A stretch of 64,000 nucleotides of DNA from an uncultured Verrucomicrobia subdivision 3 bacterium. GTDB taxonomy: Bacteria > Verrucomicrobiota > Verrucomicrobiia > Limisphaerales > UBA11358. This document shows, piece by piece, positions 1,429 to 33,019 of this stretch; position 1 is the stretch's first letter; every line of letters starts with the position of its first letter. The translations under genes were made by a program, and so were the position numbers. Below the pieces are notes generated by a model. That model saw only the letters and a list, made by a program, of their open reading frames with translations, was not told the DNA's origin and did no database searches. Location of the stretch: assembly GCA_903842235.1 (NCBI GenBank), contig CAIMLG010000105.1:1621-65620 (forward strand), written 5' to 3'.

Positions 1429-2196
1429 ATGAAAATCCGATATCAACGTAATCCGAGTTTCCGACTGGCTGGCTTCTCAGCCTCAGGGCTAACCCAACTG
1501 TATTTGGTTGCCGCCTTGATGTTTCTGGGGGGCGTTTTGGGCGCTTCGGCCGGCAATGTGTATCTCCGGGCGAATGATGCGAGCGGATCTTCGTCGGTCA
1601 CGGGTTCGACGAATTGGAATCCCACCGGGGTGCCGGTGGCTGGCAATACATATTATACCACCAACACCTCCGGCGTGGGCTTGTTGATGCGCACGCCCAC
1701 CGGCCTGCGGAACGATATCTTTCTCGGCGACGCGCTCGTGCTCTGCACCAACCTCAACAATGATACGCTGACCATCAAGGGCGACCAGGGGAGTGTCCTG
1801 ACCGTGAGCAACTTGATCATGGCCGGTGGCAGCGTGGCCAATGGTGCAAGCTCTGCCAATGCGGCAACGACCAACACGCTCGCCGGTTTTATTAACGTGG
1901 TGGCGGGTTCGCGGTTCAACCCCACGTCGGCCGGGCGTGCGATAGTGGTGGTTGCCGCCATCACCAATGGCGTCAGTCCCATCACCTGCGCCAATCCGGG
2001 CGCGGTTTGGATGCTCGGCACCAACTATGGTTTCACCGGCAAGATGGTGGCCAACGCCGGCTGCACCTTGCGCATCACCAACCAGTTCAATTTGGGCGGC
2101 AATCCGGCAGCCTTCACCGCCGACCAGCTGCTGCTCGACAACGGTGTTTTGCAGGTGACCAACAATGTTTCGCTCAACGACGCCAACCGGGGGTGA
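1429..2196 (+). CDS. N-terminal fragment of a giant autotransporter-associated beta-strand repeat exoprotein (signal/anchor plus head module), ended by a frameshift
   Basis: N-terminal hydrophobic segment LTQLYLVAALMFLGGVLGASA. The head-module-like motif follows (WNPTGVPVAGNTYY...LMRTP...FLGDALVL...IKG). The ORF stops at ...NDANRG* inside a G5 tract and continues in another frame (see 2193..8111). Confidence 0.75.
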   Translation: MKIRYQRNPSFRLAGFSASGLTQLYLVAALMFLGGVLGASAGNVYLRANDASGSSSVTGSTNWNPTGVPVAGNTYYTTNTSGVGLLMRTPTGLRNDIFLGDALVLCTNLNNDTLTIKGDQGSVLTVSNLIMAGGSVANGASSANAATTNTLAGFINVVAGSRFNPTSAGRAIVVVAAITNGVSPITCANPGAVWMLGTNYGFTGKMVANAGCTLRITNQFNLGGNPAAFTADQLLLDNGVLQVTNNVSLNDANRG

Positions 2197-5100
2197 CCTT
2201 GGGCGCCGGTAACGGCACCTTGGATGTGGGTTCAGGCGCGACTTTGATAATTGCCGATCCGATCACCGGCGGCGGCAAACTCACCAAAAACAGTGCGGGC
2301 AGCTTGATTCTGAGCGGCGCGAACACCTACACCAATGGCACCACCCTCAATGCCGGTATTCTCAACGTGCAAAACAGTTCGGGTTTGGGCACGAACGGCA
2401 CGGTTACGTGCGTCACCCGCAACGGGGGCATTCAATTGCAGGGTGGCGTTAACCTTCCGGCGGCGGTCAATTTCACCTTGAGCAATGATGGCACCGGCGC
2501 CAGTCCGCAGATTCCCTACGCGCTCGACAACGTTAGCGACAACAACACGATCAACGGCGTGATTACGCTGACCACCGGTGGCGGCGGCGCGGCCATCCAG
2601 TCTGACAGCGGGGCGCTATTGATCACCGGCATCATCCGGATTGCGTCCGGCCAATCTTCCCGCGGCATCACCCTGCAAGGGGTTTCCACGGCCGCCAATA
2701 TGATCAGCGGGGCCATCACGAACGGTGCCAATGGGGTGAACAGTGTCACCAAAACCAACGCCGGCACTTGGACGCTTTCCGGGATGAACCTCTACGCCGG
2801 CCCCACGATCATCAGTGGCGGCACGCTGGCCTTGAGCGGCAGTGGTTCGATTTCCTCTTCTCCGCTCATCAGCATCGCGTCGGGCGCGACGTTGGATGTC
2901 TCGGGGCTGTCCTCTACCTTCACGCTGGGTGCGGGCCAGAGCCTTTCCAACAGCGTAGGCACGGTGAATGGTTCTATGGCAACGGCGGCCGGTGCCACAA
3001 TTTATCCGGCGACGGTGGGGGCGGCGGGAACGCTGACCGTTAACGGCAACATCGACCTGAGCGCCGGTGGGATTGTCACCTTTGATTTGAGCACCAGCGC
3101 GGCCGGCGGCAACGACCTGGTGGCCGTGGGCGGCAATCTGACCTTGAGCAGCAGCGACTTCATTCACATCAATGCCTTGAGCGGCGCTCTGGACACAGCT
3201 GATTATGTTTTGTTCTCGGTCAGCACGGGCACGACCATAGCCACGACGCCGGTGCTGGTTTGGGATGGTTCGATTCCGGGTAATTATCTCAACTACAGTC
3301 TGTTGAAAGTCGGCAATAATGTGGTGCTTCGTTACTCGTCCTCCACGGCCCCGTCGGTCACGGCGTCCGTCAACCCCGCTTCGGCCATTCGCAATCAAGC
3401 GGTGGTGGTGACGGCCAATGTAACCAAAGGCAGTGGCAATATTGTGAGTGTGACGGTGGATTTGACCCAGATTGGTGGCTCCGCCACGGCGGGTCTGGCG
3501 TTGGACAGCGCGAACAGCACTCCGCCCACCTATATCTACACGAACACCTTTTTTGTCCCAGCCAGCGTTACTTTGGGAAACAAATCGCTGACCGTTGTGG
3601 CGACCGATGATTCTTCTCCCACACCTTTGACCGGGACTTATGTCATCACGCCCTACACGATCAACCCGAACGCCGTGACTTGGGACGGCGGCGGGGTGGA
3701 TAACAAATGGACTTCAAACGCCAATTGGACGAGCGATATTGGGCCCGGCTACATCGGCGACAGCGTGGCTTTCGATACGGGCAACCAGTTGGCGGCGGAC
3801 ATGGACACCAATTACACCGTTGCCGGCGTGACCTTCAACGGCGGGGCGGGCGCGTTTGTCATCGGCAGCAGCACCGGCAGCACGCTGACCAGCAGCGGCG
3901 GCATGGTCAACAATTCCTCCAGCCCGCAAACGCTGAATGTGCCGGTGGTGATTAGTGCGGCCCAGACCTTCAATGCGGTATCCGGCAATTTGACCCTCAC
4001 CACCAACGTCACGCTTGGTGGCAACACGCTGACCGTGGACGGCGCGGCGAATACGACCCTCAGCGGCTTGATTGCCGGCACGGCGGGCCTGACCAAAAAT
4101 GGGGGCGGCACCCTGGTGCTTTCGAGCGCGAATACCTATGGCAACAATGGGGGTTCCGACACCCTGGTCAATGCGGGCACGCTGGTCCTGGGCAATGATC
4201 TGGCATTGGGAACGAGCCGGTTGAATATTTCGGATGGGGGAACCGTGCAATCTGCGGATAGTTCGGCGCACATCATTACCAATCGGCTCAACTTCGGCGG
4301 CGTCGCCGGGGCCAACGCGATCTTCGGCGGCACGGGTAATCTTAAATTTACCGGCTCGGCCGCCAATGGAACCGACAAGATCCTGACGGTGAACAATCCC
4401 CAGACCGAGTTTAGCGGCGGGCTGAGCGGGGCCAGCAAGCGCACGGTGGCCGGCCCGGGCACGCTGATTCTCAGCGGCGCGAACACCTACAGCGCCGGCA
4501 CGACGATCAACCCGGGCGCCACGCTGCAACTGGGCAGCGGCGGCACCACGGGTTCACTCTCCACCAGTGGAACGATTGATGACGAGGGCACGCTGATCTT
4601 CAACCGCAGCGATTCAATTGTCCAAGGCACCCACTTTAGCAGCGCCCCCATTATCGGCGGCGGCGCGGTGGTGCAAGCTGGTTCCGGCACCACCACATTG
4701 AATGCGGCGAACACTTATTCGGGCGCCACCACCATCAGCGGCGGCGAATTGTTCATCACGCCGGCCTATCAGGCGGGCGGCGCTGTCACGGTTGGTGACA
4801 ACGCCAAATTCGGGGTTTCCGCCAACTCGGTCAGCACCAGCGCCACGATTGGCAGCCTGAATTTGGGCGGCGGCGGGGCGACCACGCTGGACTTCGCGTA
4901 TGGGTTTTCGGGCAATCCGACCAACGCCGCCCTCGCGGCGGGCGCGGTCACCCTCAATGGCACCAGCGCGATTCGCGTCAGCGGCAGTTTTGCCTTGGGC
5001 GCGTTCCCGGTGCTCAAATACGGCAGTCTTTCCGGAGCCTTTGCGAGCACGGTGGCCGGCCCGCGGGGGGTGACGGCAACGCTGTCCAACGATGTGGTTA

Positions 5101-8100
5101 ACCAAATTATTTATGTAAAGATTTCCTCGATTGGCAATGGGATAGTCTGGACCGGCACCAACAGCGTTTTCCCCAATCTCTGGGATTTGAACACGACGAC
5201 CAACTGGCTGTTCGGCGGCTTGCCGGCGGTTTATATCGAGAACGTGCCGCCGGGAGACGCGGTGACTTTCAATGACGCCGGCAGCGGCCTGGTGCTGGTG
5301 AGCAACACGGTGAGCCCGGCGGGAGTGACCATCAGCAATGCGGCGGTCAACTACACGTTCCAAGGCTCCGGCCAGATCAATTCCCCCGGCGGTTTGACCA
5401 AGGTTGGGGCGGGCACCGTGACGCTGAATGTGCCCACGACCTTCGCTGGTAACACGGTGGTTTCCAATGGCACGATCAGCCTTGGCGCCAGCCAAACCTT
5501 TGCCAATTTGTCCGGCAACAGCGCCGTGACTGCGCCATCGGGCGCGGTGACGCTCACGGTCAACGAAGGCTTGACCAGCGCCTTCTCCGGAAACCTTTCG
5601 GGGGCGCTGGGCCTGACCAAGACCGGGACCGGCCAGATCACGCTGACCGGCAGCAATAACTTCTCCGGCAATCTTTTTGTGAAAGCCGGCGGGTTGACGC
5701 TGGATTCCGGGTCCGTGGCCGCGAACAATTTCTGCAGCGTGGGCCAGAACGGCACGGACAACGGCGCGCTGACCTTGAAAGGAACGGCAGCCTGCACCAT
5801 CAACAACGACTTGAACGTGGCTGACGTGGGCGCCTCCGTGGGCACCTTGAATATTCAGGACACGGCCAGTCTGATCATGAACTCGTTCTTTATCGGGTCG
5901 GCCAACGGGGCCGGTTCGACCGCCAGCGGCACGGTTAATCAAACCGGTGGCACGGTGACGCAATTGACCACCGGTGCGGGCACATTCTGCATTGGTGGCC
6001 GAGTCCAGACCAACTCGGTCGGTGGGGTGGGCGTCTATAATTTGAGCGGCGGCACTTTGATCGCTGCTTCGGGAATCCGCGTGGGCTCGGCGGGTCCGGG
6101 AACTTTTAATCAGAGCGGCGGAACAGTGATCCCCAACGGCGACTTAAATATCGCCCGCTTCGCCGGGGCGACCGGCACCTACAATTTGGATGGCGGCACC
6201 CTCGTTTCCCGCGTGACTTCGAGCACCGGTGCCAACGCCGTCTTCAATTTTAACGGCGGCGTGTTGATGGCGGCCGGGGATAACACCACCTTCATGGGTA
6301 GTTTGTCGCAGGCCAATGTCCGAAATGGCGGCGCGGTGGTGGACACCACCAACTTCAATGTCACCATCGTGCAGAGTCTCCAGCACAGCCCCCTCGGTGG
6401 TGATAATGCCATTGATGGCGGCTTGACCAAACGCGGCAACGGCACGCTGATCCTGAGCGGATCGGGTTCCACCTACACCGGGCCAACCGTGGTTGCGGGC
6501 GGCACGTTAAGCCTCCTGCCCAATGCAGTTGTCAGCCTGAACAACACGACGGTCAGCAATGCCGCCTTGAGCCTGACCATGAACTATGGCTCGGGAACTT
6601 GTTATGCCGCCGACCTGACCTGGGCCGGCAACTCGGCCTTGAACGTGAACTATGGCCTCGTGCTGGGTGTGCCCCCCGTGGCCCTGGTTGCCAGCGGCAA
6701 TCTGACCGCTTCCGGCACCAACATGATCAATCTGAACGCCTACGGATTGACGGTGGGCCAATATACCTTGGTCGCCTATTCCGGCCCCCCGCTCGCGAAC
6801 CTGAGCCACTTCAGTTTGGGAACCATCCCGGTGGGCGTTACCGCTAGCTTGTCCAACAACGTCGCCAATTTGTCCGTTGACCTCGTCGTCTCGGCGGTCG
6901 GGATGGCGAACTGGATTCCGCTGGCAAATTCGGATGCCGCCGGCGCCTCCAGTTTCAACGCGGCGCTCAACTGGCTGGATGCAAGTGTGCCGACGGCGGG
7001 CAACGGCTATTTCACCCGCAACTTTACCCTGCGTTCGCCGGCGGATGCCAACGCCTACACCTTTGGCGGCAGCATTTTGGCGGTGGATGCGGGCGGCCGT
7101 TTCTTAATGAAGGGCAACAATGGTCAGGTCATCACGGTTACCAACCTCGTGTTGAACGGCGGCTTGGTGGACTTTGCCGTGACCACGGCGGATAACTTTA
7201 CCGAAACCCTGGCCGGCAACATCTCGCTGAACGGCGGCCTGACCAGCTATCTGGGGGCGGCGGGGGCGGCGGGGGCGGCGGAAACCTTGTTTGTGGACGC
7301 GCCGGTCAGCGGCAGCGGCAATCTCCAACTGGGCGGCCCCAGCGTGAATAGCGGCTCGGATGTCGGCGTCGTGGTGCTGGCGGCCACCAACACCTATACC
7401 GGCACCACGACCGTGGCTGGCGGAACCCTGCTCATCAACGGCGCCAACGGTAACTCGGCTATCACCGTGAACGCCAATGCCACGCTGGGCGGGATCGGTT
7501 CGCTCGCCGGGCCGGTCACCGTGCAATCCGGAGGCAACCTGGCCCCGGGCATTCCGGCTCGCGGCGCTTTGACGGCCGCGATTGGGACGTTGACGGCTGG
7601 CGGCACCACCGTGGGCGGCACGGTGCTGATGAAAATGGATCGCAATTCGGCGCCGACCAGCGACCGGTTGGCCGCATCCAGCGTGGTGGTGAACCCCGGG
7701 GCAACCCTCACGGTCAACAACCTCGGCTCGACCAATCTGGTGGCGGGTGACACGTTCGCGTTGTTCAGTTCGCCGGTCAGCGGGACGTTTAGCACGGTCA
7801 ATCTACCCGCCTTGCCCGTGGCGAGCTTGGCGTGGACCAACCGGCTGGCCCTGGACGGGACCATTGCCGTGGTCGCCCTGGCGACCATCAATACCAACAG
7901 CCCGGTCCTCACCAATTCCTTCTCCGCTGGCTCAGTGAATTTGTCCTGGCCGGCCGATCACACGGGCTGGACGCTGCAGGTCCAGACGAATTTGTTAGGG
8001 GATGGCCTGGGCACCAACTGGGTGGATGTGCCGGGTTCGGTGCTAACCAACGAGGTTGCCATTCCGGTGACCATCACCAATGGAGCGGTGTTTTTCCGCT

Positions 8101-8111
8101 TGAAATTGTAA
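2193..8111 (+). CDS. Giant autotransporter-associated beta-strand repeat exoprotein, main part (continuation of 1429..2196)
   Basis: The ORF is open over 2007..8111, but 2007-2189 encodes Arg/Gln-rich out-of-frame noise overlapping 1429..2196. Recognisable protein begins at GVTLGAGNGTLDVGSGATL (2190). It has dozens of PF12951-type units (G.L.LSGANTY[TS]G.T.I..G.L), an Ig-like segment, a second head module (~6910), a neck module and an F-F-R-L tail. Confidence 0.85.
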   Translation: MTLGAGNGTLDVGSGATLIIADPITGGGKLTKNSAGSLILSGANTYTNGTTLNAGILNVQNSSGLGTNGTVTCVTRNGGIQLQGGVNLPAAVNFTLSNDGTGASPQIPYALDNVSDNNTINGVITLTTGGGGAAIQSDSGALLITGIIRIASGQSSRGITLQGVSTAANMISGAITNGANGVNSVTKTNAGTWTLSGMNLYAGPTIISGGTLALSGSGSISSSPLISIASGATLDVSGLSSTFTLGAGQSLSNSVGTVNGSMATAAGATIYPATVGAAGTLTVNGNIDLSAGGIVTFDLSTSAAGGNDLVAVGGNLTLSSSDFIHINALSGALDTADYVLFSVSTGTTIATTPVLVWDGSIPGNYLNYSLLKVGNNVVLRYSSSTAPSVTASVNPASAIRNQAVVVTANVTKGSGNIVSVTVDLTQIGGSATAGLALDSANSTPPTYIYTNTFFVPASVTLGNKSLTVVATDDSSPTPLTGTYVITPYTINPNAVTWDGGGVDNKWTSNANWTSDIGPGYIGDSVAFDTGNQLAADMDTNYTVAGVTFNGGAGAFVIGSSTGSTLTSSGGMVNNSSSPQTLNVPVVISAAQTFNAVSGNLTLTTNVTLGGNTLTVDGAANTTLSGLIAGTAGLTKNGGGTLVLSSANTYGNNGGSDTLVNAGTLVLGNDLALGTSRLNISDGGTVQSADSSAHIITNRLNFGGVAGANAIFGGTGNLKFTGSAANGTDKILTVNNPQTEFSGGLSGASKRTVAGPGTLILSGANTYSAGTTINPGATLQLGSGGTTGSLSTSGTIDDEGTLIFNRSDSIVQGTHFSSAPIIGGGAVVQAGSGTTTLNAANTYSGATTISGGELFITPAYQAGGAVTVGDNAKFGVSANSVSTSATIGSLNLGGGGATTLDFAYGFSGNPTNAALAAGAVTLNGTSAIRVSGSFALGAFPVLKYGSLSGAFASTVAGPRGVTATLSNDVVNQIIYVKISSIGNGIVWTGTNSVFPNLWDLNTTTNWLFGGLPAVYIENVPPGDAVTFNDAGSGLVLVSNTVSPAGVTISNAAVNYTFQGSGQINSPGGLTKVGAGTVTLNVPTTFAGNTVVSNGTISLGASQTFANLSGNSAVTAPSGAVTLTVNEGLTSAFSGNLSGALGLTKTGTGQITLTGSNNFSGNLFVKAGGLTLDSGSVAANNFCSVGQNGTDNGALTLKGTAACTINNDLNVADVGASVGTLNIQDTASLIMNSFFIGSANGAGSTASGTVNQTGGTVTQLTTGAGTFCIGGRVQTNSVGGVGVYNLSGGTLIAASGIRVGSAGPGTFNQSGGTVIPNGDLNIARFAGATGTYNLDGGTLVSRVTSSTGANAVFNFNGGVLMAAGDNTTFMGSLSQANVRNGGAVVDTTNFNVTIVQSLQHSPLGGDNAIDGGLTKRGNGTLILSGSGSTYTGPTVVAGGTLSLLPNAVVSLNNTTVSNAALSLTMNYGSGTCYAADLTWAGNSALNVNYGLVLGVPPVALVASGNLTASGTNMINLNAYGLTVGQYTLVAYSGPPLANLSHFSLGTIPVGVTASLSNNVANLSVDLVVSAVGMANWIPLANSDAAGASSFNAALNWLDASVPTAGNGYFTRNFTLRSPADANAYTFGGSILAVDAGGRFLMKGNNGQVITVTNLVLNGGLVDFAVTTADNFTETLAGNISLNGGLTSYLGAAGAAGAAETLFVDAPVSGSGNLQLGGPSVNSGSDVGVVVLAATNTYTGTTTVAGGTLLINGANGNSAITVNANATLGGIGSLAGPVTVQSGGNLAPGIPARGALTAAIGTLTAGGTTVGGTVLMKMDRNSAPTSDRLAASSVVVNPGATLTVNNLGSTNLVAGDTFALFSSPVSGTFSTVNLPALPVASLAWTNRLALDGTIAVVALATINTNSPVLTNSFSAGSVNLSWPADHTGWTLQVQTNLLGDGLGTNWVDVPGSVLTNEVAIPVTITNGAVFFRLKL
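7254..7280 (+). repeat. In-frame 9-bp x3 tandem repeat (GGGGCGGCG)3 encoding GAAGAAGAA
   Basis: Read directly from the sequence at 7254-7262, 7263-7271 and 7272-7280, inside the giant gene. Confidence 0.9.
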
Positions 8112-8120
8112 TGACAATCG

Positions 8121-8153
8121 CCGCCGGGACGACCATTGGGGCCGTCCCGGCGG
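8121..8153 (+). terminator. GC-rich hairpin after the giant gene (terminator/attenuator candidate, no U tract)
   Basis: CCGCCGGGACG (8121-8131) is the perfect reverse complement of CGTCCCGGCGG (8143-8153), with an 11-nt loop. It starts 10 nt after the stop at 8111. Confidence 0.35.
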
Positions 8154-8193
8154 TCCTTAACCAGCCATTAAAAATAGCCCCCTATTTAATCTC

Positions 8194-8982
8194 GTGATGA
8201 ATCTAACCTCCCCGCGTAAACAGGCCTTTACCCTGATCGAACTTCTGGTCGTGATCGCCATCATCGCCATCCTGGCGGCCATGCTGCTGCCGGCCCTGGC
8301 CAAGGCGAAGGAAAAAGGCAAACGCGCCCTGTGCGTCAGCAATCTCCGGCAGATTGCCGTGGGGATGACCGTTTATGCCGGTGACAATAACGATCTGGTT
8401 GTTGAGTCGCACATCGACGGGGCCTCGAAGCAGGGAGTGCAGAATGTTTTGGAGCCGAGTTCAGCCTCCGCTGCTGCCAGCGTGCAGTTGATCGTAAACA
8501 CCAACAGCGGAACTCGTTGTATTTGGGCCTGTCCGAATCTCCCGCAACTGCCCGGCTATGAGCCCGGCTCTTATAATCAATTTGACATCGGCTACCAATA
8601 TTTCGGCGGCACGGGCTTCAAAAATTGGGTCAACACGCTCGGCAAATTTACCGGCCATAGTCCCATTAAACTGGCCCAAGCCAAGCCGCATTGGGTCTTG
8701 GCGGCGGATTGTGTCATGAAAATAAACGGCGCCTGGGGCAAAAAGGATCCAACCCGCACGCTCTATGACAATATGCCGCCGCATAAGTCCGGCGGCGCCT
8801 TGCCGGCCGGCGGCAATGAAGTTTTCTGCGACGGACATGTGGAATGGATCAAGGCGCAATCCATGTATTATCTGACCACGTGGCAGACGGATGGCACCCG
8901 GATTTGTTACTTTTATCAGGATCCGCAGGATTTTGACGCGACCCTGCAGGCGGCGCTTAAATTCCTGGCCTTCAAACCTTGA
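8194..8982 (+). CDS. Prepilin-type N-terminal cleavage/methylation domain protein (pseudopilin-like, H-X9-DG-family-like C-terminus)
   Basis: Canonical N-terminus [27 protein letters not shown]. The C-terminal [15 protein letters not shown] resembles the DG-H motif of the H-X9-DG family, but the His spacing is not canonical (H-X15-DG). Confidence 0.9.
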
Positions 8983-14093: not shown

Positions 14094-14206
14094 TCTAAAC
14101 TCTGAAACGCCACAGTTGATCTGCAGTCTGAATGTTAGAATGCCAAACTGAAATCCAGCAACCGATTACAAACCACACCTGAATAATCATCAATCCCCAA
14201 TAGCGC

Positions 14207-14983: not shown

Positions 14984-15007
14984 TCCACCCGCACCCAAAT
15001 TTTCAAA

Positions 15008-20631: not shown

Positions 20632-20751
20632 CATTTTCCAGTGAAAACTTTACCTGTCCATCTCCGAGGCTGTTTAAAGCGTGCAAGTGCGCGGGTGAAA
20701 ATCACGCGATCTCCCGCCCTTGGTGATCCGGCGGTTTGGCGCACTGCCAAG

Positions 20752-23973: not shown

Positions 23974-24015
23974 TTAACCACGAACAAAGATTTTCGCCAA
24001 GAAGCAGACCAGGTC

Positions 24016-27000
24016 ATGAATAGTCGAACTGTAAAATTTCCCATGTTGTTCCGATTGGTCGGATGGATTTGTTTGGTGACGTCGGGTCTGCCGATGATTT
24101 GTTTCAATGCAGGTGCTTACACGGCGGCGGATGCGCAAACGATGGTGGATTCCTTCAACAACGCTTTTTATTTCACCACCAGCGGTCGCGGCTATTTCCG
24201 TGACTCAACCGATGGCGGCACAACGTGGTTCTGGGGGCGGGCAAACCAGATGGAAATGCTCGTTGACCTTTATGAGCAAACCACCAACACCGCCTACCTG
24301 ACCCAGTTCTCCAGTCTCTACAACGGTTTCGCTTACGACTACGGCACGAGCTGGACCTGGAACGCTTACAACGACGACATCATGTGGATGGTGATCGCCT
24401 GTTCGCGCGCGTATCAAAAGACCGGCAACAACACCTATCGCTCGGTGGCGAAAAGCAATTTCGACGCGTGCTATACGCGGGCATGGTCTACGAATGGCGG
24501 TGGCGGGTTGTATTGGAAATACCCGGACAATTCGTCGAAGAACGCCTGCGTTAACGGCCCGGGTGCGATTGCAGCCTACCTGATCTATCAAAACTACGGG
24601 GACACCAACTATCTTGCCAAGGCCGAAAGTTTATACCAGTGGGAGCGGGCAAAATTATTCAACAGCGGCAGCGGTTCGATCGCCGACTACTACGGCAGCG
24701 ATAACGCCGCCCATGGTGGGGCAACCTCATACAACCAGGGGACGTTCATCGGTGCGGCAAATTTCCTCGGCTACACCAATGACGCCATCCTCGCGGCGAA
24801 TTACACCAGAAACAGCATGGGCACCGGTGGCCAGTTGCCAAATTACGACGAGAACAGCGACCTGGGCAATTTCAACGCCATCTTCGTCCGGTGGATGGTG
24901 AGGTTCATGAAGGATCGTGGGCTGCAAAGGGATTATCAGTTGTGGCTCCAGCAGAACGCCAATGCCGCGTGGAATGTGCGGCGCCCATCGGACAATATCT
25001 CCTGGTCGAAATGGTGGGATCAAACGCCCGATGACACGCGCTACTCGGTCGGCTGCTGGGGTTCCGTAATGGTGATGAACCTGGTGCCGCCGACCCAAAA
25101 TCCCGGTGGCAGCGTGGTGACTTTGAACACCAGTGATGTGGCCGGGAGCAGCAGTTTCGAAAGCGCGTTGAACTGGTCGGACGGAGCGGCTCCGTCGTCG
25201 GCCAAGAATTACGTGGTGAACATCGCCCGCACATTGCGAACGCCGGCAGACGGATCCCATCACACTTTTGCCGGAAGTTCGTTGACGCTGTCAAACGGCG
25301 CTGTGCTCGCGTTCAAGAACACCTCCGGTGGACGCTATGTTTCCATCGGCACGGATCTGTTTCTCGATGGCGGCGAAGTCCACAACTGGTCGGGCAACAG
25401 CGCCAGCCTGGGGGGCAAAGTCACACTGAAAGCGGGCGGGGGGAAAATTGATCCGCAGGGGAATTCATTTTCGTTTCCCGCGTTAATTGGCGGACCCGGT
25501 GCGTTGCGGATCGGTGCCACGGCGGTTTCTCCTTTGAACGGCACCGTCAATCTGAACGGCGTAAACACCTACACGGGCGGCACGGTCATTGAAGCGCCGC
25601 ACACGGTGCAAATCGACAACTCTGCTTGTCTGGGTAGCTCAACCGGTTCACTCGCTTTCAGCAACTCGGTTGGGCGCGGATATGGCACAATGAACCTGAA
25701 TGGCATTGACCTGACAATTGGAAAACTCAGCGGAGCAGGTGGCACCATTATGAACAGCAAGAGCGGGACAACGAACACGCTGACGATCGGCAATGGCGAT
25801 GCGACCGGCGGCATCTATCAGGGCATTATCACCGATGGCGGTGGTATGCTAGGTGTGACCAAGGCTGGCACGGGTTCGATTGCGCTTTCGGGGGCGAACA
25901 CATTCAGCGGCGGCATGACCATGGACGCGGGCCAGTTGAACATCAATTACGGCGGTTCCAGCAGCGCCAACTCGGCCATCGGCATCGGTGTTTTGACTAT
26001 TTTAGCGAATACCACGCTGGACAACACCAGTGGCACGGAGGTGACGCTGCGGCCGAATAATGCCCAAGTGTGGAATGGCAATTTCACCTATGCCGGAACT
26101 GCGAACAGTCTGAATCTGGGCACGGGCGCGGTGAGCCTGGCCGCCACCCGCACGGTGACGGTGAGCGGTAATAGATTGACGGCAGGGGGTGTGATCAGCG
26201 GCGCCGGTGGACTCGCTAAAATGGGCCCCGGCACTTTGGCGCTTACCGGGGCGAATATGTTCACGGGAACGGTGGACCTTCAGGCTGGCACACTGGCAAT
26301 CGGTAATGATTCAGCCCTCGGAACCGGGCCATTGAATTTTAACGGTGGCACGCTTGGAGCGACCATTCAGTCCATTGACGGCGCGGCGCGCATGATAACG
26401 AATGCCTTCAATTTCGGCGGCAGCGCGGGCGCCAACGCAATCTTCGGCGGCACGGGGAATCTCAAATTCACGGCCACCCCGAATGCCAATGGCACCGCCA
26501 AGACCTTGACAGTGAACAATCCGCGGACGGAGTTCAGCGGGGTCTTGGGTGGAGCCAGCGCGCGCACGGTGGCCGGCACGGGCATCCTCATTTTTAGCGG
26601 GGCAAACACCTATAGTCTGGGCACGACGATCAATCCGGGCGCCACGCTGCAACTGGGCAACGGCGGCACAAGCGGCTCGCTTTCCACCAGCGGCACGATT
26701 GATGACGAGGGCACGTTGATCTTCAACCGCAGCGATTCAATTGTCCAAGGCACCCACTTTAGCAGCGCCCCCATTATCGGCGGCGGTTCGGTGATCCAAG
26801 CCGGTTCCGGCATCGTCACCCTCAACGCAGCAAACACCTACTCCGGAAGCACTATGGTCGGCAACGGGGTGCTAGGCGGCACCGGTTCAATCCCCGGAAT
26901 GCTCAATGTGCAACCCGGGGGAACCTTGGCTCCGGGCATGCCTTCCTGGGGGATTTTGCCGGCTGTGATGGGGACATTGACCGCCGGCAATACGACCATT

Positions 27001-27495
27001 AACGGCACGATGCGGATGAAGATTGACCGCTCGGTGACGCCCACCAGCGACAAGTTGTCTGCCCCTAGCGTTGTTGCCAATGCGGGATCTGCTTTAGTGG
27101 TTACCAACCTCGGGCCGACCAATTTTTCGGCTGGCGACCGATTCACGCTTTTCAGCGTGCCCATCAGCGGCGCGTTTAATTCGGTCAATCTTCCGCCATT
27201 GCCTGATGCGAGTTTGGTCTGGGCCAACAACCTTGCCGTGGACGGCTCGATTGCAGTGATTCCGGCGGTCGCCATCACGCCAACCAATCTGGTGGCGCAA
27301 TTTTCGGTGAACACGCTGACCCTCTCGTGGCCGGCTGACCATACCGGGTGGCGGTTGCAGACGCAGACGAATCCGTTGGTCACCGGGTTGAACTCGAACT
27401 GGTTTGATGTCGCAGGCGCAATAAGCACGAATCAAATGATCCTCCCGTTTTCGCCCGATGCGGGGGGCGTCTTCTTCCGTTTGATCTATCCGTGA
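24016..27495 (+). CDS. GH76-like alpha-1,6-mannanase fused to head module, beta-strand repeats, neck module and F-F-R-L tail
   Basis: N-terminal domain with WFWGRANQMEMLVDLYE, NDDIMWMVIACSRAY, GGGLYWKY and KNACVNGPGAIAAYL, which are GH76-like. Downstream are PF12951 repeats and modules paralogous to 4230-4740 and 7490-8108. Confidence 0.88.
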   Translation: MNSRTVKFPMLFRLVGWICLVTSGLPMICFNAGAYTAADAQTMVDSFNNAFYFTTSGRGYFRDSTDGGTTWFWGRANQMEMLVDLYEQTTNTAYLTQFSSLYNGFAYDYGTSWTWNAYNDDIMWMVIACSRAYQKTGNNTYRSVAKSNFDACYTRAWSTNGGGGLYWKYPDNSSKNACVNGPGAIAAYLIYQNYGDTNYLAKAESLYQWERAKLFNSGSGSIADYYGSDNAAHGGATSYNQGTFIGAANFLGYTNDAILAANYTRNSMGTGGQLPNYDENSDLGNFNAIFVRWMVRFMKDRGLQRDYQLWLQQNANAAWNVRRPSDNISWSKWWDQTPDDTRYSVGCWGSVMVMNLVPPTQNPGGSVVTLNTSDVAGSSSFESALNWSDGAAPSSAKNYVVNIARTLRTPADGSHHTFAGSSLTLSNGAVLAFKNTSGGRYVSIGTDLFLDGGEVHNWSGNSASLGGKVTLKAGGGKIDPQGNSFSFPALIGGPGALRIGATAVSPLNGTVNLNGVNTYTGGTVIEAPHTVQIDNSACLGSSTGSLAFSNSVGRGYGTMNLNGIDLTIGKLSGAGGTIMNSKSGTTNTLTIGNGDATGGIYQGIITDGGGMLGVTKAGTGSIALSGANTFSGGMTMDAGQLNINYGGSSSANSAIGIGVLTILANTTLDNTSGTEVTLRPNNAQVWNGNFTYAGTANSLNLGTGAVSLAATRTVTVSGNRLTAGGVISGAGGLAKMGPGTLALTGANMFTGTVDLQAGTLAIGNDSALGTGPLNFNGGTLGATIQSIDGAARMITNAFNFGGSAGANAIFGGTGNLKFTATPNANGTAKTLTVNNPRTEFSGVLGGASARTVAGTGILIFSGANTYSLGTTINPGATLQLGNGGTSGSLSTSGTIDDEGTLIFNRSDSIVQGTHFSSAPIIGGGSVIQAGSGIVTLNAANTYSGSTMVGNGVLGGTGSIPGMLNVQPGGTLAPGMPSWGILPAVMGTLTAGNTTINGTMRMKIDRSVTPTSDKLSAPSVVANAGSALVVTNLGPTNFSAGDRFTLFSVPISGAFNSVNLPPLPDASLVWANNLAVDGSIAVIPAVAITPTNLVAQFSVNTLTLSWPADHTGWRLQTQTNPLVTGLNSNWFDVAGAISTNQMILPFSPDAGGVFFRLIYP

Positions 27496-27856
27496 GCAGT
27501 CCCTTGAGGCTTCTCTTCCAGTCGGCATCGTGCGAGAGGTCTTTCAAATTAAAAACATCCGTGGGGCAGGGCACGGTTCCGGCTGTCGTTGCCCCCAAGG
27601 AAACACCAACACCGCACGTTTTCTCCGCTTGAAGATACCCAACCCATAGCCGGCGATGCGTCACCCGGCGGGGTGAGGCAAAAGCACCCGGCGGCGGCTC
27701 CCGGGACAGTTTGAAGAACTATTTCCGGGCTGGTGCGCGCTTCGGGCGGCAGCATGGCAGCGGATTCCGGTTAGCGCTTCGGGGATTTGTTTGATTCAAC
27801 CAGAGTTGTTGGTTAAGTTGAAGGAGAATAAATTCCATCCATTTTACCGGCCGGCA

Positions 27857-28441
27857 ATGCCCAATTTTGAAGCCCAACATGATGTGACGCGCGTGCTGCA
27901 GTCGCAGTCCCCGGAAGGCGGCGTTTCCGAGGAGTTATTGCCTTTGGTTTACAAGGAATTGCGGGTATTGGCGGCCTCGCGAATGGCGCGGGAAATGGGC
28001 GGTCAAACCCTGCAGCCCACCGCCTTGGTGCACGAGGCTTGGCTGCGGCTCCAATCCAATTCCGCCCCCGTCTGGCACAACCGGGCGCATTTTTTTGGTG
28101 CGGCGTCCGAGGCCATGCGGCGAATTCTCATTGAACGGGCGCGGCGTAAATTACGGCTGAAGCGGGGAAATCGGGCTGAGCACGTCAGCATTGATAATGT
28201 GGACGTGGCCCAAACCCTCCCCGACGACCGCATTTTGCTGATTGACGAGGCGTTGACGCGTTTGGGGGCGGCCGATCCCGAACTGGCGCAGATTGTGACG
28301 CTGAAATTTTTCGGCGGCTTAACCAACGTGGAAGTGGCTGAGGCTCTGGGGGTCACCGAGCGCACCATTTACAATAAATGGACCTTTGCCAAGGCTTGGT
28401 TGTTAAAGAGCATTAACGAAGAATGGAATGGGGAGGCATAA
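27857..28441 (+). CDS. ECF-type RNA polymerase sigma factor (TIGR02999 / kinase-linked ECF type)
   Basis: DVTRVLQS...LLPLVYKELRVLAASRMAREMGGQTLQPTALVHEAWLRL, and a region-4 HTH (LTNVEVAEALGVTERTIYNKW). ATG 27857 is preferred over the TTG at 27791. Confidence 0.9.
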   Translation: MPNFEAQHDVTRVLQSQSPEGGVSEELLPLVYKELRVLAASRMAREMGGQTLQPTALVHEAWLRLQSNSAPVWHNRAHFFGAASEAMRRILIERARRKLRLKRGNRAEHVSIDNVDVAQTLPDDRILLIDEALTRLGAADPELAQIVTLKFFGGLTNVEVAEALGVTERTIYNKWTFAKAWLLKSINEEWNGEA

Positions 28442-28508
28442 CCCCGATGCCTTTCCGGTTTTCCCCCCTGCCAGCGCATTATTGTGTGAAAAACTGCTGT
28501 CTCAACCC

Positions 28509-30749
28509 ATGAGTGCGGATACTGACAAAGAACAATTGCTATTTGCCGCCGCGCTGCCGATTACGGACCCCGGTGAACGGGAAGCCTTTCTCAAGCGAGC
28601 CAGCGCGGCTGACCCCCATGTGTGTTCCCGGGTGGTTGAAATGCTGGCGCATCATGATCAAAGTGACCGGTTTTTTTCTGAATGCATCACCAACCTGGCC
28701 ATTGATGAGGTGGATGTTTTGGAAGTGGCGGAGCTGGTGAGCGCAAAATCGGTGGTTGGAGAAATGGCCGGCATACGGATCGGTCGATATCGGTTGCTGC
28801 GGCAATTGGGTGAAGGCGGGTGCGGGGTGGTTTATTTGGCGGAACAGGAAGTGCCGGTCCGCCGCCGCGTGGCCTTCAAGCTCATCAAGCTGGGCATGGA
28901 TACCCAGAATGTCATTGCGCGGTTTGATACTGAACGCCAGGCCCTGGCGATGATGGATCATCCCAATATTGCGAAAGTCCTGGATGGGGGTGCCACGGAA
29001 TCCGGTCGTCCATATTTCGTGCTGGAGCTGGTTCAAGGAGTGAAAATCACGACCTACTGCGACGAAGAAGACCTGACTGCGCCCCAGCGGCTGGAGCTGT
29101 TAATTCAAGTCTGTCAGGCCATCCAGCATGCACACCAAAAGGGGGTGATTCATCGCGACATCAAACCGTCCAATATTTTGGTGACGATGCTCGATGGCCG
29201 GCCCGTTCCCAAGGTGATTGATTTCGGGATCGCCAAGGCCATCGAAGGCCGGCTCATGGACAATCCCGATCTTACAATGGCAGGACAGGTCGTTGGCACG
29301 CCCGCTTACATGAGCCCGGAACAGGCGGAGCTGAGCAGCCTGGACGTTGATACACGCAGTGACATCTATTCACTTGGCGTCCTGCTTTATGAATTGCTTA
29401 CCGGTCGCACGCCCTTTGACCAAAAGGAACTTGTCCAATCCGGTTTGGATGAAATGCGGCGCACGCTGCGTGACAAGGAACCCCAGCGTCCTTCCACGAT
29501 GCTGACCGGTCTCACAATTACCGACCTGGCCGCCACCGCCAAACATCGCCAGATGGAGCCGCCCAAACTGATCAAGTCATTGAAGGGTGATTTGGATTGG
29601 ATCGTCATGAAAGCGTTGGAGAAGGAGCGGCAGCGGCGTTATGAGACCGCGAATGCCCTGGCCATGGATGTCCGGCGCTACCTCAACAATGAACCGGTTG
29701 TCGCGCGGCCCCCCAGCCCGTTCTACCGGCTCCAGAAATCAATTCAGCGCAACAAGGTTATTTATGCCAGTGGTCTGGCGGTGGCCCTCACGCTGATTGT
29801 GGGATTGGAAGTTTCCACCAGTTTTTTCTTCAAGGAACGGCAGGCGCGCATGGAATCCGAACAGGCACACGCCAACGAAATGTTGTTACAGAAAATGGTG
29901 AAGGCGCGTGAGACCGTCACCGAGGCGGGGGTTCTGCTGAGTCATGGTGCCTCGGCGGAGGCGGATGCCTTGGTGAAGGCCATTCCGGTGGAATTGCTTT
30001 CGCCCTCCCGGGAGTCTAGTGACGTCTTTCGCCAACTGGGCATGTGGAATCTGTTACAGCGGAAATGGAAACAAGCCGCCAATCGTTACATTGTTCTGTT
30101 GCAGGTCAATCAGGTGGACAAAAACGACCGGACGGATCAGGCCACCCATGATTTGTTGTTTGCCGCGCCGATCTTGATTGAAGCGGGTGACATCGCCGAC
30201 TATGAACGGATCCGGCTGGCGGCCTTGGCCCGATTGAACACCACCACCAGCGTGGGCGCCGCCGAACAGTTGATCAAGACCAGTTTATTGCTGCCGGCGG
30301 ATGACGCCATTCTCAAACAATTGGAACCTCTGGAGGGCGTTGTAAAAAAGGCGCTGGCCAGCCGTGATCCGGCCGTGAATGACCGCAGCCAGCTTGCCGC
30401 GTGGCGGAGCTTTGCCCTGTCTCTGCTGGAATATCGCCGGGGTGATTTCAACGCCGCCGTCACCGAGCTGGGTGTCTGTTCCAGTTATCCCGGTCAGTCA
30501 CCGGCCTGCGTGGCCGGCACGCATCTGTTGTTGAGCATGGCTCTCCGCCAGCTTGGAAAAGCTGAGCAAGCCGACGAGGAATTGGCGGAGGGCCGGGCGA
30601 TGGTTCAAAATCGGTTCCAAGAGAAGCTCGAATCCGGCAATGATGTAACCGGCAGGATTGAAGGGTGGATCGTCACGCCTATTCTACTGCACGAGGCCGA
30701 GTCACTGGCCAACACGTCCACCTGGCTGCGAACTGGCGACACGAAATGA
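28509..30749 (+). CDS. Membrane Ser/Thr protein kinase with extracytoplasmic TPR-like sensor domain
   Basis: Hanks kinase motifs are present: LGEGGCGVVYLA, VAFKLIK, HRDIKPSNILV, DFGIAK and GTPAYMSPEQ. There is one TM segment (VIYASGLAVALTLIVGL) and a helical-repeat C-terminal half. ATG 28509 is preferred over 28428. Confidence 0.92.
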   Translation: MSADTDKEQLLFAAALPITDPGEREAFLKRASAADPHVCSRVVEMLAHHDQSDRFFSECITNLAIDEVDVLEVAELVSAKSVVGEMAGIRIGRYRLLRQLGEGGCGVVYLAEQEVPVRRRVAFKLIKLGMDTQNVIARFDTERQALAMMDHPNIAKVLDGGATESGRPYFVLELVQGVKITTYCDEEDLTAPQRLELLIQVCQAIQHAHQKGVIHRDIKPSNILVTMLDGRPVPKVIDFGIAKAIEGRLMDNPDLTMAGQVVGTPAYMSPEQAELSSLDVDTRSDIYSLGVLLYELLTGRTPFDQKELVQSGLDEMRRTLRDKEPQRPSTMLTGLTITDLAATAKHRQMEPPKLIKSLKGDLDWIVMKALEKERQRRYETANALAMDVRRYLNNEPVVARPPSPFYRLQKSIQRNKVIYASGLAVALTLIVGLEVSTSFFFKERQARMESEQAHANEMLLQKMVKARETVTEAGVLLSHGASAEADALVKAIPVELLSPSRESSDVFRQLGMWNLLQRKWKQAANRYIVLLQVNQVDKNDRTDQATHDLLFAAPILIEAGDIADYERIRLAALARLNTTTSVGAAEQLIKTSLLLPADDAILKQLEPLEGVVKKALASRDPAVNDRSQLAAWRSFALSLLEYRRGDFNAAVTELGVCSSYPGQSPACVAGTHLLLSMALRQLGKAEQADEELAEGRAMVQNRFQEKLESGNDVTGRIEGWIVTPILLHEAESLANTSTWLRTGDTK

Positions 30750-33019
30750 GCAAGCCAAAAAGTTCTTTGATGCCTTTCCTGAACTTGATTCGGAGAAACC
30801 TGAATTACTTGTGCTTCGTGGTCATTATTGCGCAGTTGGTTGCATGCAGCCCAGCCAGCGGGACAGACATACTCGAGGCCGCCACGGCCGCGGCGTCGGG
30901 CACGGATTGGAATCAAGGCAGCCAGTGGAATGGAGGAAATCCGCCGACCAGCGGAATCAACTATGTCCTCTATACCAACACTTCAAATAATTCGACATTA
31001 TCCAGCTACTACGGTGTCAGTTTCGGAACCGGTTATATCCGGACGCCGGCCAACAATGGCGCGAGTGGGTTTCTTGGGGATAATCTTATCCTCCCCCCTG
31101 GCACTGAAATATTGTTGAAACAAACATCGGGCGGATCCGCCAGTGCCAACATCATTTTCACCAATTACAATAATATCAGCCCCGTCGGGCTGTATCCTCT
31201 CGTTCGTTTGGGGCCCAGCACCTCGGGCGGAACGGCGACTTTGAATGGGACCATCACCCTCCGGGTGGATTCGTATGTGGCCAATGATGCTGGCGCGACC
31301 ATGACACTCAATATTGCCTCGCTGGTGGCGGGGGGGGGCAATTTGACCCTGGTATCAGCCAATGCCGGGACTTTTTCTACGACCCGGACCAATTTGGTGA
31401 CGGGTGACTGGAGCGGATTCACCGGCACGTTGAACATTGGAAACTCGACGGTGGCCGGGGTGGTGGAACTGAACAACTCAGCGTGGAATGTGAACATGGC
31501 GCTCACTATGCCCAGGGCGAACGGGGTGTTGGTATTGGACAAGGGGATCAGCGTGAAAGGCTTTTCTATCGCCAACAACACGGTGTCGGCGGGAACTTAT
31601 ACGCCGGGGCAATTGACGGCCTTGGGCTTTGGTGGAAGCTTTTCAGGCACGGGCTCGCTGACGGTTGGTTTTACCGCGCCTCCGGGTTTGGCCGCAACGC
31701 CCGGCAATGCCCAGGTGGCGTTGACCTGGCGACCGGTGTATGGCGCGGCCGGCTACAACGTAAAGCGTTCGACGGTCAGCGGCGCGGAAACCACCATCAT
31801 TAATGTGGCCAATCCGAATTATACGGATACGGGACTGGCCAACGGCACGACTTATTACTACCAGGTATCGGCGACGAATATTGCGGGCACCAGTGCTGAT
31901 TCGGCCGAAGCCAACGCCACGCCCAACAGCACGGTGTCTTCTCCAAAAATAATCAAGGTTTATCTGCAAGCCGGGCAATCAAACTCGGACGGTCGGGCAT
32001 TGACCAATGGGCTGCCGTCTTATTTGCTCAACCCACAAAATGACGTGCCGTTTTATTATTACCTGACGGGTGGTGCCGCCAATGGCGATGGCACGCTGGG
32101 CACCCTTTCGCCGTTGCACCCCGGCGCTTCGGCGCTCGGCGGCGGCACCACTTTCGGCCCGGAGTTGACCTTTGGGCGGACGCTTGCCGATTACTTTGCC
32201 CTGACCAACGGCGCTTCGACCAATACCGTTATGGTGGCAATCATAAAATATGCCCACGGCGGCACTTCGTTGGTTTCGGGTTGGGCCGCCAATGGGAATA
32301 GTTCCACCAACGGTGACGGTCCTGATTACCTCATCTTTCAAAAGGTTGTCAGCCATGGGTTGTCCCGTTTGGCTGCGGCGTATCCCAATACCAGTATTGA
32401 ACTAGATGGCATGATCTGGGTGCAGGGGGAAAGTGACATTGACGCCGGATCCAGTGCGTCTGCCGCCTACGGTATGAATCTGGAAAAGTTCATCAATGAT
32501 GTGCGCTCAACGTATGCCGCAAATCAACCCTTCGGCACGAACCTGCCGTTTTTTCTTTCCCGAATTTCCGCCAATCAAACCGTCTATTCCTCGCCGCCGG
32601 ATGCCGATTATCCGAACTATCTTTTATTGCGCGCGGGTCAACAATTCGCAACTACAAATCTGCCTAATGTCTTTATGATCAATACGGACGCATCCCAATT
32701 TTCCACAGCGACACCCTGGTCGAGCCCCGGGCTACATTTTGACACTCAGGGACAGCAATCAATAGGCGTGGCCTTTGGGCAATCCGTGATCAAGGGCCTG
32801 CCGGCGCCACGATTGCAACTCCCGCAGCGGGCTGATGGTGGCTGGCTTGTGGGTTTTTCAGGGGAATCAGGAACGTGGCATTCAATTGAGCGTTCATCTG
32901 GTATTAACGGAACATGGATTTTGCTCACAAATATTCTGGTTGGGGCGTCTTGGTTCACAAATTACGTTGACCCAAGTCCGCTATTTCCTTATGGCTTCTA
33001 TCGCGTAAGCCGACCATAG
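30746..33019 (+). CDS. Exoprotein: head-like module, fibronectin type III domain, SASA-type (sialate O-acetylesterase-like) carbohydrate esterase, F-Y-R-V tail
   Basis: The ATG at 30746 overlaps the kinase stop (ATGA). It has a lipoprotein-like N-terminus (LVACS) and an FN3 segment (AQVALTWRPVYGAAGYNVKRS...TYYYQVSATN). The esterase motifs are QAGQSNSDGRA, YAHGGTSL and WVQGESD. It ends GFYRVSRP. Confidence 0.88.
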   Translation: MSKPKSSLMPFLNLIRRNLNYLCFVVIIAQLVACSPASGTDILEAATAAASGTDWNQGSQWNGGNPPTSGINYVLYTNTSNNSTLSSYYGVSFGTGYIRTPANNGASGFLGDNLILPPGTEILLKQTSGGSASANIIFTNYNNISPVGLYPLVRLGPSTSGGTATLNGTITLRVDSYVANDAGATMTLNIASLVAGGGNLTLVSANAGTFSTTRTNLVTGDWSGFTGTLNIGNSTVAGVVELNNSAWNVNMALTMPRANGVLVLDKGISVKGFSIANNTVSAGTYTPGQLTALGFGGSFSGTGSLTVGFTAPPGLAATPGNAQVALTWRPVYGAAGYNVKRSTVSGAETTIINVANPNYTDTGLANGTTYYYQVSATNIAGTSADSAEANATPNSTVSSPKIIKVYLQAGQSNSDGRALTNGLPSYLLNPQNDVPFYYYLTGGAANGDGTLGTLSPLHPGASALGGGTTFGPELTFGRTLADYFALTNGASTNTVMVAIIKYAHGGTSLVSGWAANGNSSTNGDGPDYLIFQKVVSHGLSRLAAAYPNTSIELDGMIWVQGESDIDAGSSASAAYGMNLEKFINDVRSTYAANQPFGTNLPFFLSRISANQTVYSSPPDADYPNYLLLRAGQQFATTNLPNVFMINTDASQFSTATPWSSPGLHFDTQGQQSIGVAFGQSVIKGLPAPRLQLPQRADGGWLVGFSGESGTWHSIERSSGINGTWILLTNILVGASWFTNYVDPSPLFPYGFYRVSRP

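Follow-up and report, generated by a model that had tools for sequence, protein, structure and literature searches.

In soil, in freshwater and in the ocean, Verrucomicrobiota rank among the major degraders of polysaccharides. To our knowledge, they do not have the SusC/D machinery by which Bacteroidota capture glycans, and how their enzymes are exported, positioned and organised is poorly understood. This question is raised by a stretch of 64,000 nucleotides from an uncultured subdivision 3 bacterium (contig CAIMLG010000105.1; the whole stretch is called the window here), in which positions 1429-33019 hold a run of genes for large secreted proteins that combine glycan-active domains with PATR beta-strand repeats and with three further modules, called head, neck and tail. 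Is this a dedicated system in which the enzymes are displayed on a common structure, as an earlier note on this DNA had proposed, or is it the ordinary way in which this lineage builds its exoenzymes? The evidence argues for the second answer: the locus is probably a lineage-typical, chromosomal cluster of carbohydrate-active enzymes (CAZymes) of a non-SusC/D type, with exoenzymes made from shuffled standard modules. The nearest named relatives of the host are Pedosphaera, Limisphaerales and subdivision 3. The tail, the capped stalk without a barrel and a prepilin-like partner are testable handles on enzyme export in the phylum.

Are head, neck and tail real? Hidden Markov models (HMMs) of head and neck were built from protein H and its 51 orthologues only, so that matches in the other window proteins are independent; the tail HMM used on the window excluded window sequences. 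The six large proteins and the module copies of protein A (with independent E-values, i-E) are:

1429-8111, + strand: gene A, giant secreted protein of ~2,227 aa with nine PATR repeats (PATR E 6.1e-38; TIGR02601)
1549-1860, + strand: head copy 1, N-terminus of A (i-E 1.4e-10)
2979-3257, + strand: partial neck of A, a weaker copy (2.9e-9)
6912-7184, + strand: head copy 2, internal in A (i-E 1.8e-19), opening a C-terminal head-helix-neck-tail unit
7518-7883, + strand: neck of A (i-E 6.7e-30)
7908-8105, + strand: tail of A, a C-terminal beta-sandwich of ~65 aa (i-E 3.9e-25)
9021-14093, + strand: gene C, with head (9150-9425), neck (9756-10124), GH115 (10971-11996) and GH115_C (12768-13247)
16654-20631, + strand: gene F, with PATR beta-helix, internal tail (18889-19077) and a six-hairpin glycosidase-like domain (19078-20628)
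20641-23973, + strand: gene G, with GH43 (20839-21708), two LamG domains (the first at 21847-22296) and a subtype 2 tail (23776-23970)
24016-27495, + strand: gene H, with GH76 (24130-25038), head (25102-25425), PATR beta-helix, neck (26902-27276) and tail (27289-27492)
30665-33019, + strand: gene K, with head (30878-31138), fn3 (31679-31912), SASA acetylesterase (31955-32791) and a divergent C-terminal domain (32810-33016)

Outside A, the H-orthologue models matched a head in C (1.5e-17) and in K (8.4e-8) and a neck in C (4.9e-29); the tail HMM matched H (9.4e-27), F (1.6e-18, the internal copy) and G (2e-11). No head was found in F and G, no neck in F, G and K and no tail in C, and the other 31 kb of the window held no further copy of any of the three. 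PATR repeats exceeded the Pfam threshold in A (nine copies), H (four) and F (one) and in no other window protein. All four parts thus occur together in A and H only; C combines a head with a neck and F combines PATR with an internal tail, while G has only a tail, behind its two LamG domains, and K has a head and a divergent end. The six proteins had been described before as being built from the same parts, and this is right as far as the parts are concerned but not for the set, which is complete in two of them and reduced to subsets in the other four. When the C-termini of K and C were compared with the tail profile made without window sequences, the last strand alone aligned (F[FYL]R[LV]xxxP). 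K gave a weak match (12.3 bits) to an HMM of variant tails and finishes with GFYRVSRP; the C-terminal domain of C differs from the tail and has RFLRLSVSRP as its last residues. In C, the stretch 13690-14090 has a calcium-binding-like motif (W..FG...D.D.DG..N..EYA) followed by a beta-rich stretch up to these residues, and a choice-of-anchor X domain motif matches at 10278-10349, after the neck.

Proteins of this kind could also appear related for a trivial reason, namely if the shared modules were an artefact of low-complexity, Gly/Thr/Asn-rich beta-strand repeats, and many weak, diffuse BLAST matches of 22-26% identity indeed link the large proteins. The independent profile matches, however, reach 1e-17 to 1e-30, the tail is modelled by AlphaFold as a five-strand beta-sandwich with a pLDDT (per-residue confidence) of 91, its alignment has ten invariant residues (W14, P15, W21, L23, T27, N28, W38, R64, L65 and P68), and its 10,159 database matches described below sit at a fixed position in the protein. 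The head and neck motifs written down in the earlier note were recovered almost exactly in the alignments. Head, neck and tail are genuine modules with sharp, conserved boundaries, and the probability of an artefact is negligible.

To which families do these modules belong? In the order head, short PATR helix, neck and tail, the modules make up a compact unit of ~400 aa, which recurs at the C-terminus of A-like proteins from other metagenomes (P0268, P0270, P0272, P0279). A profile of this unit matches the passenger region of PDB structure 8e7f_A, an 'extracellular serine protease' (E 2.2e-9), and some NCBIfam models of autotransporter proteases and adhesins (those of EprS, ShdA and fusolisin) match weakly. 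By these matches, the stalk is an autotransporter-type PATR beta-helix without the beta-barrel, and its N- and C-terminal caps are best seen in head and neck. AlphaFold models H as beta-rich, and for the most part with confidence, at residues 365-640 and 950-1085. Like type Va autotransporters (SPATE/subtilase, PF12951), the proteins combine a signal for the general secretory (Sec) pathway, a right-handed PATR beta-helix stalk and a catalytic domain in cis, and passenger repeats (PF12951/TIGR02601; 8e7f_A) are found in A, F and H. That they are classical type Va autotransporters, for which the repeats and the matches just named would speak, is nevertheless most improbable. None of the proteins has a C-terminal beta-barrel, the 12-stranded barrel models (PF03797/TIGR01414) matched no open reading frame (ORF) of the locus, and the stalk ends in a neck and a soluble beta-sandwich of 65 aa, with the glycoside hydrolase (GH) cargo N-terminal, in the middle or C-terminal. 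The missing barrel refutes this class unless a separate translocator (two-partner secretion) is encoded elsewhere in the genome. Neither Pfam nor NCBIfam has a model for head, neck or tail, and searches of the literature for PATR or autotransporter-repeat CAZymes in Verrucomicrobia, Pedosphaera or Limisphaerales brought up no description of them; in this combination, the modules appear not to have been described before.

Which enzymes are carried by this framework? With the Pfam gathering score as threshold for domain calls, GH115 (405.6 bits) with GH115_C in the middle of C, GH43 with two Laminin_G_3 domains in G, N-terminal GH76 in H (PF03663, 86 bits) and SASA in K were all recovered, as were the domains of two further enzymes encoded between C and F:

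14207-14983, + strand: gene D, 3-keto-disaccharide hydrolase (3keto-disac_hyd, DUF1080, PF06439 E 1.1e-47, 162.9 bits) with a Sec signal
15008-16453, + strand: gene E, Gfo/Idh/MocA oxidoreductase (GFO_IDH_MocA; PF01408, PF19051) with the twin-arginine signal RRSFIKG

The GH and esterase assignments that had been made by eye from the translations are therefore upheld by the HMM scans, with the reservation that the FN3 domain placed before the SASA domain of K stays below the threshold (21.6 bits against a cut-off of 25, E 2.5e-4). The nearest NCBIfam relative of the GH43 domain of G is the endo-arabinanase AbnA. For H, the AlphaFold model contains a confident GH76 barrel that Foldseek superimposes on Aman6 of Bacillus circulans (4boj; E 2.7e-19, TM-score 0.86, 32% identity), so that PF03663 and structure agree on the (alpha/alpha)6 fold of a GH76 alpha-1,6-mannanase. 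N119, D120 and D121 are invariant among 52 GH76 sequences (H and 51 orthologues), and this stretch presumably holds the catalytic Asp-Asp pair. The C-terminal 517 residues of F gave a weak direct match to Bac_rhamnosid6H (E 0.0095) and none to PDB sequences; since 19 of 25 homologues carry precomputed six-hairpin glycosidase labels (PF17389 and/or PF22422), the (alpha/alpha)6-like domain that had been proposed at this place, behind an internal tail, is a reasonable call.

D and E deserve a comment. D carries the DUF1080 domain of the 3-keto-glycoside pathway (BT2156-BT2159 type), and E scores 273 bits against NF058561, the family of the glycoside 3-dehydrogenase BT_2158, at a cut-off of 750; it is related but not an equivalog. 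A 3-keto-glycoside route has been shown for BT2157-BT2159, and the function and biochemistry of the DUF1080 family have been described (PMC8121099). As judged from domain content, the D and E pair would match this route.

GH115, GH43, GH76, SASA and a six-hairpin GH together with a sigma factor of the extracytoplasmic function (ECF) type and a Ser/Thr kinase, both described below, make the interval a CAZyme gene cluster. The absence of SusC/D and of a TonB receptor, already remarked on from the translations, was borne out: Pfam and NCBIfam scans of 13 ORFs gave no match to SusC/D, a TonB receptor (TonB_dep_Rec, Plug), an autotransporter barrel, dockerin or cohesin. There is also no transporter gene in 1429-33019. 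The locus resembles the polysaccharide utilization loci (PULs) of Bacteroidota and dbCAN-type clusters in its co-directional CAZymes and regulators, to which relatives add major facilitator superfamily (MFS) transporters, GH125, GH97 and GH2. It differs from them in having no SusC/SusD pair or TonB-dependent receptor and in its probable regulation, by ECF sigma factor and Ser/Thr kinase or, in relatives, by HisKA_3/LuxR two-component systems.

Does the locus attack one glycan with enzymes that are displayed together? According to the earlier note, this is a dedicated locus whose products are held on a common fibre-like scaffold, as an alternative to a PUL for one acetylated heteroglycan. The genes are co-directional, the modules are common to several locus proteins, regulators lie within the locus while SusC/D is absent, and a comparable co-directional locus exists in L083, where a giant tail protein and a prepilin gene are found with regulators, a GH76-PATR-tail protein and a GH97-tail protein. 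All of this would fit. Against it, each enzyme has its own paralogous stalk in cis, and neither a scaffoldin-like partner nor a docking pair is present; the beta-helix is missing from G and the tail from C; the modules are found on thousands of unrelated proteins, and the gene content of relatives is strongly different. A common fibre is therefore clearly improbable. A cellulosome shares with this locus the principle of an invariant non-catalytic tag attached to glycan-active cargo that varies, but here no dockerin or cohesin family was matched and the scaffold modules lie inside each enzyme and not on a separate scaffold protein.

The proposed single substrate did not hold up either. Different glycans are suggested by the GH families, namely alpha-mannan, arabinan and glucuronate-decorated polymers, and an alpha-1,6-mannanase, an endo-arabinanase, an alpha-glucuronidase and an acetylesterase do not converge on one defined acetylated heteroglycan. 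More distant GH76-PATR genes lie in co-directional CAZyme clusters with GH125, GH97, GH2, GH85, GH78, GH67 and GH130, which also hold MFS transporters and HisKA_3/LuxR regulators. This partner set suggests use of alpha-mannan or N-glycans. The GH115, GH43 and SASA genes of the window fall outside it, and for this reason no single substrate can be named.

Nor is the locus a conserved unit. Synteny of the whole locus with relatives is patchy, and gene content differs. In the closest relative, L080, adjacency is kept only for the kinase (63% identity to J), the GH43-LamG protein (83% to G) and the GH76-PATR protein (65% to H), in that order. The regulators concerned are:

27791-28441, + strand: gene I, ECF sigma factor (TIGR02999)
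28428-30749, + strand: gene J, Ser/Thr kinase, overlapping I

I and J are probable regulators of the locus. In L080, the genes of the GH43 and GH76 orthologues are immediately preceded by that of the kinase orthologue, and this order suggests that the I/J pair may regulate G and H.

How did different enzymes come to share these modules? Self-blastn and repeat search revealed 82% nucleotide identity between 4264-4723 in A and 26384-26846 in H, and 68% between 7022-7877 in A and 9263-10121 in C. At the protein level, residues 28-367 of C and 1626-1957 of A2, the second part of A, are 59% identical over ~340 aa. In H, the block shared with A is a stretch of low pLDDT that varies among H orthologues. 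The shared A/H and A/C blocks are direct evidence of module exchange by recombination, and they point to recent events of recombination or gene conversion between its genes. A second mode is seen in F. Full-length homologues of its C-terminal domain are mostly stand-alone proteins of ~530-560 aa, with a signal peptide first in those inspected, and in F the six-hairpin domain is fused straight after FFRLIYP, at the position of this signal peptide. The junction is conserved in P0294. F is a fusion in which a PATR-tail protein has taken the place of the signal peptide of a six-hairpin enzyme.

How far does this design extend beyond the locus? A search of 1.84 billion cluster representatives with the tail profile gave 10,159 matches at E<=1e-3 and 2,878 at E<=1e-10. 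Among the 147 best matches, the tail ends five residues or fewer from the C-terminus in 144 (98%), and 12 have several copies. The cargo of 43 long tail-bearing proteins includes PATR in 24 and LamG in 12, besides Ig, DUF642, fn3, GH85, GH43, a PL4 module, alginate lyase, pro-kumamolisin and NHL repeats. A neck directly precedes the tail in 18 of 40 long proteins; the H-type head is rarer (1 of 40). A scan of GTDB with subtype-1 tails as query, one genome per species, gave 487 confirmed subtype-1 tails, several of them in the same genome in several cases. The 79 best loci lie on metagenome-assembled genomes that are all regarded as of Verrucomicrobiota type and are mostly labelled Verrucomicrobiota, subdivision 3, Limisphaerales or Pedosphaera; the few labels Bifidobacteriaceae, Acidiferrales or Sulfotelmatobacter are taken as mislabels. 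Further tail variants with an FYRL ending lie outside the tail HMM.

GH76 joined to PATR occurs in more than 50 database clusters. H has more than 300 homologues; of the best 120, ~50 carry GH76 with PATR and ~55 more carry GH76 with LamG, and 103 of the 120 end with a tail. A GH85 enzyme in L085 has head, PATR, neck and tail, and L083 and L086 contain GH97 enzymes with a tail beside tail-less GH97 paralogues in the same loci. A scaffold with exchanged cargo, as claimed for this locus before, is thus real, inasmuch as relatives carry GH76 or GH85 on the full scaffold and a tail on GH97 or GH43; it is, however, a property of the lineage and not of the locus, and the tail also accompanies cargo other than CAZymes. 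The locus is an ordinary example of the design of its lineage and not a unique system. A principle of this kind, in which scaffold modules and a terminal tag stay constant while the cargo varies, is already well known from autotransporters, type IX secretion system (T9SS) cargo and cellulosomes. What is left is a strictly C-terminal module on more than 10,000 protein clusters that has no curated family model.

What, then, does the tail do? Its strict terminal position, its unrelated cargo, the coexistence of paralogues with and without it and the end of P0282 make a shared localisation role the most likely one, although we favour it tentatively and it falls just short of being probable. P0282 is a head-bearing homologue from another metagenome in which a PEP-CTERM-like anchor (VPEGSSFLIFGLGG...RR) replaces neck and tail; PEP-CTERM/exosortase PATR proteins of other Verrucomicrobiota accordingly resemble the proteins described here in combining head and PATR with a C-terminal element in the equivalent position. 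The tail itself is not such an anchor. It has no transmembrane helix, PEP motif or basic cluster, the proteins end with ...FFRLxYP without a hydrophobic helix, and TIGR02595 gave no match. If the tail is a localisation module, it could mark the surface-exposed or extracellular member among paralogues, for example among the GH97 enzymes with and without tail in one locus.

Two known tags were also compared with the tail and rejected, as neither a dockerin nor the C-terminal domain (CTD) of T9SS cargo matches it in family or fold. The likeness to T9SS cargo of Bacteroidota is nevertheless considerable: in both cases a small C-terminal beta-sandwich is found on hundreds to thousands of unrelated secreted proteins of one lineage, many of which are CAZymes. 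The tail differs in having no sequence or fold match to T9SS CTDs (Por_Secre_tail), in being sometimes repeated or internal, and in that sorting is a function we infer for it. The lineage is not known to possess a T9SS. Isolated tails matched nothing in Pfam (even at E<=10), NCBIfam or PDB sequences. With Foldseek, the nearest PDB structures are FN3 domains, with non-significant E-values of 0.2-1 (best 0.23) and TM-scores of ~0.5; the top 50 matches are mostly FN3 or Ig-like, and none is named as a T9SS CTD.

Such matches rather recall a second explanation, in which tail and PATR helix are purely structural or substrate-binding (a carbohydrate-binding module, CBM, a spacer or a folding cap) and carry no sorting information, secretion being achieved by a general route such as a type II secretion system (T2SS) that recognises the folded protein. 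The small beta-sandwich predicted for the tail would suit this, and so would its conserved aromatics W14, W21 and W38. An extreme C-terminal position in nearly all of the best matches would, on the other hand, be unusual for spacers or CBMs, the tail is found on proteases and adhesin-like proteins besides CAZymes, tail-bearing and tail-less paralogues coexist in one locus, and the head-bearing P0282 ends in another kind of anchor. We regard a purely structural or binding role as possible but less likely than localisation.

Several observations weigh against localisation and against the wider picture of surface or extracellular enzymes. Tandem tail arrays occur (the 12 proteins with several copies; up to eight in P0121), and an internal tail is tolerated in F, an arrangement conserved in P0294; both are easier to reconcile with an FN3-like domain for structure or binding than with a sorting signal that is cleaved off. 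P0121 and P0122 (eight and six copies) consist largely of tandem tail domains and have no Pfam match at all. C is a large exoenzyme without a tail, the window has no genes for secretion machinery, and no known sorting domain matches the tail structurally, the best Foldseek hits being the FN3 domains mentioned above. The enzymes could also act in the periplasm; selfish uptake has been reported for Pedosphaeraceae (PMC13174399). Domain content, the modules and their distribution, the shuffling and the gene pairing are thus results of the analysis, whereas localisation, the role of the tail, the substrate and the regulation are inferred.

The exported proteins keep to the usual modular format of the lineage: a catalytic domain (GH115, GH76, GH43, SASA or six-hairpin GH) is fused in cis to non-catalytic modules, such as a PATR helix bounded by head and neck or LamG or fn3 spacers, and most of the proteins finish with the ~65-aa tail. 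Cargo swapping results from domain shuffling and gene conversion among paralogues and not from a shared fibre. Given a lineage-typical cluster with the tail as a localisation module, the locus could work as follows. The proteins would cross the inner membrane via Sec, and E via the twin-arginine translocation pathway. The tail would then serve in export across the outer membrane or in retention at the cell surface, and the beta-helix would act as rigid stalk or substrate-contact module. Released oligosaccharides may be finished in the periplasm, partly by the DUF1080 and Gfo pair via 3-keto-glycoside intermediates. The sigma factor and kinase pair would regulate at least G and H, and the giant protein A, which has no catalytic domain, would form with the prepilin-like B a separate, recurrent cassette of an adhesin and a pilin-like protein.

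What is the evidence for this cassette? The gene in question is:

8194-8982, + strand: gene B, prepilin-type protein with an N-terminal cleavage/methylation domain (N_methyl PF07963 E 4.6e-9; TIGR02532)

B starts 83 bp 3' of A and carries the prepilin-peptidase cleavage/methylation motif (PF07963, TIGR02532) and, behind it, the hydrophobic helix by which type IV pilins and T2SS pseudopilins are recognised. The pairing is not confined to the window. In the GTDB loci, 17 of 86 tail-ending ORFs have a same-strand gene with a prepilin motif as next gene downstream, at an expectation of ~0.25 from the background of the same loci. The loci are L012, L017, L018, L024, L040, L043, L049, L056, L061-L063, L073, L074, L076, L078 and L079. 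The gap is mostly 60-160 bp, the prepilin-like products have 250-335 aa, and two of them (in L076 and L024) are full-length orthologues of B. Among 105 genes immediately next to tail genes, N_methyl is the family seen most often (18 cases), followed by response regulators and CAZymes. Upstream of the prepilin genes, the partners are giant proteins of Ig, LamG or PATR type that have no catalytic domain. Prepilin genes also lie inside three of seven related GH76 loci that were examined, or four of eight if the window locus is counted.

For Akkermansiaceae, a link between a type IV-like pilus and attachment to glycans has been reported (mucin utilisation locus MUL2 of Akkermansia; PMC13174399), and by analogy this would be a precedent within the phylum for a tie between pilins and glycans. 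The likeness, pilin-like proteins of Verrucomicrobiota that are genetically tied to glycan acquisition, is one of description only: B and its relatives are DUF1559-like, have the size given above and lie directly downstream of giant tail-bearing proteins, and neither PilM nor other pilus-assembly genes are found near B-type genes. It is tempting to go one step further and to propose a sorting and surface-display route, so far undescribed, that is specific for subdivision 3 Verrucomicrobiota, involves the downstream prepilin-like proteins and uses the tail, which ends in the FFRLxYP strand, for recognition or attachment. We consider this rather unlikely. If it were true, the locus would be an instance of a new pilin-linked architecture equivalent to a PUL, and the tail route would have the role that is taken by T9SS CTDs, dockerins or SusC/D-associated lipoproteins in bacteria that degrade glycans by other systems.

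Some features of the gene layout remain to be mentioned. All convincing ORFs between 1429 and 33019 are + strand ORFs, as had been stated before; the number of genes was revised, from 13 coding sequences or 12 genes to 12 ORFs or 11 genes with the giant gene joined. A is split into A1 and A2 by a single frameshift at a run of five G (2189-2193). An extra G in this run rejoins the gene (...NDANRG then VTLGAGNGTLDV..., a typical PATR context), and the frameshift could be an assembly error, a pseudogene mutation or a site of slippage. The probable start codon of F is at 16780, and K probably starts with ATG 30746, overlapping the stop codon of J. The N-terminus of K has a lipoprotein-type signal with the lipobox LVAC (IAQLVAC), and K may be lipid-anchored. 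Scans for promoters and terminators gave counts at chance level, and tRNA and Rfam scans of the window no matches.

The rest of the window holds housekeeping genes (class II ribonucleotide reductase, metX, metY-like genes, Lnt and GH3), and the locus is chromosomal for this reason. A 1,052-aa ORF at 45690-48848 (+) lies antisense to the ribonucleotide reductase gene at 45726-48812 (-) and is almost certainly spurious, a result of the high G+C content, as are many long antisense ORFs in the locus. The G+C content is 0.55-0.59 across 14000-34000 and 0.60-0.63 in the flanks. The next + strand gene, L (34134-37370, 1,078 aa), has no head, neck or tail; it encodes a pectate-lyase-like RHGA/epimerase beta-helix domain behind an N-terminal hydrophobic segment, and the co-directional run of glycan-related genes may extend past 33019.

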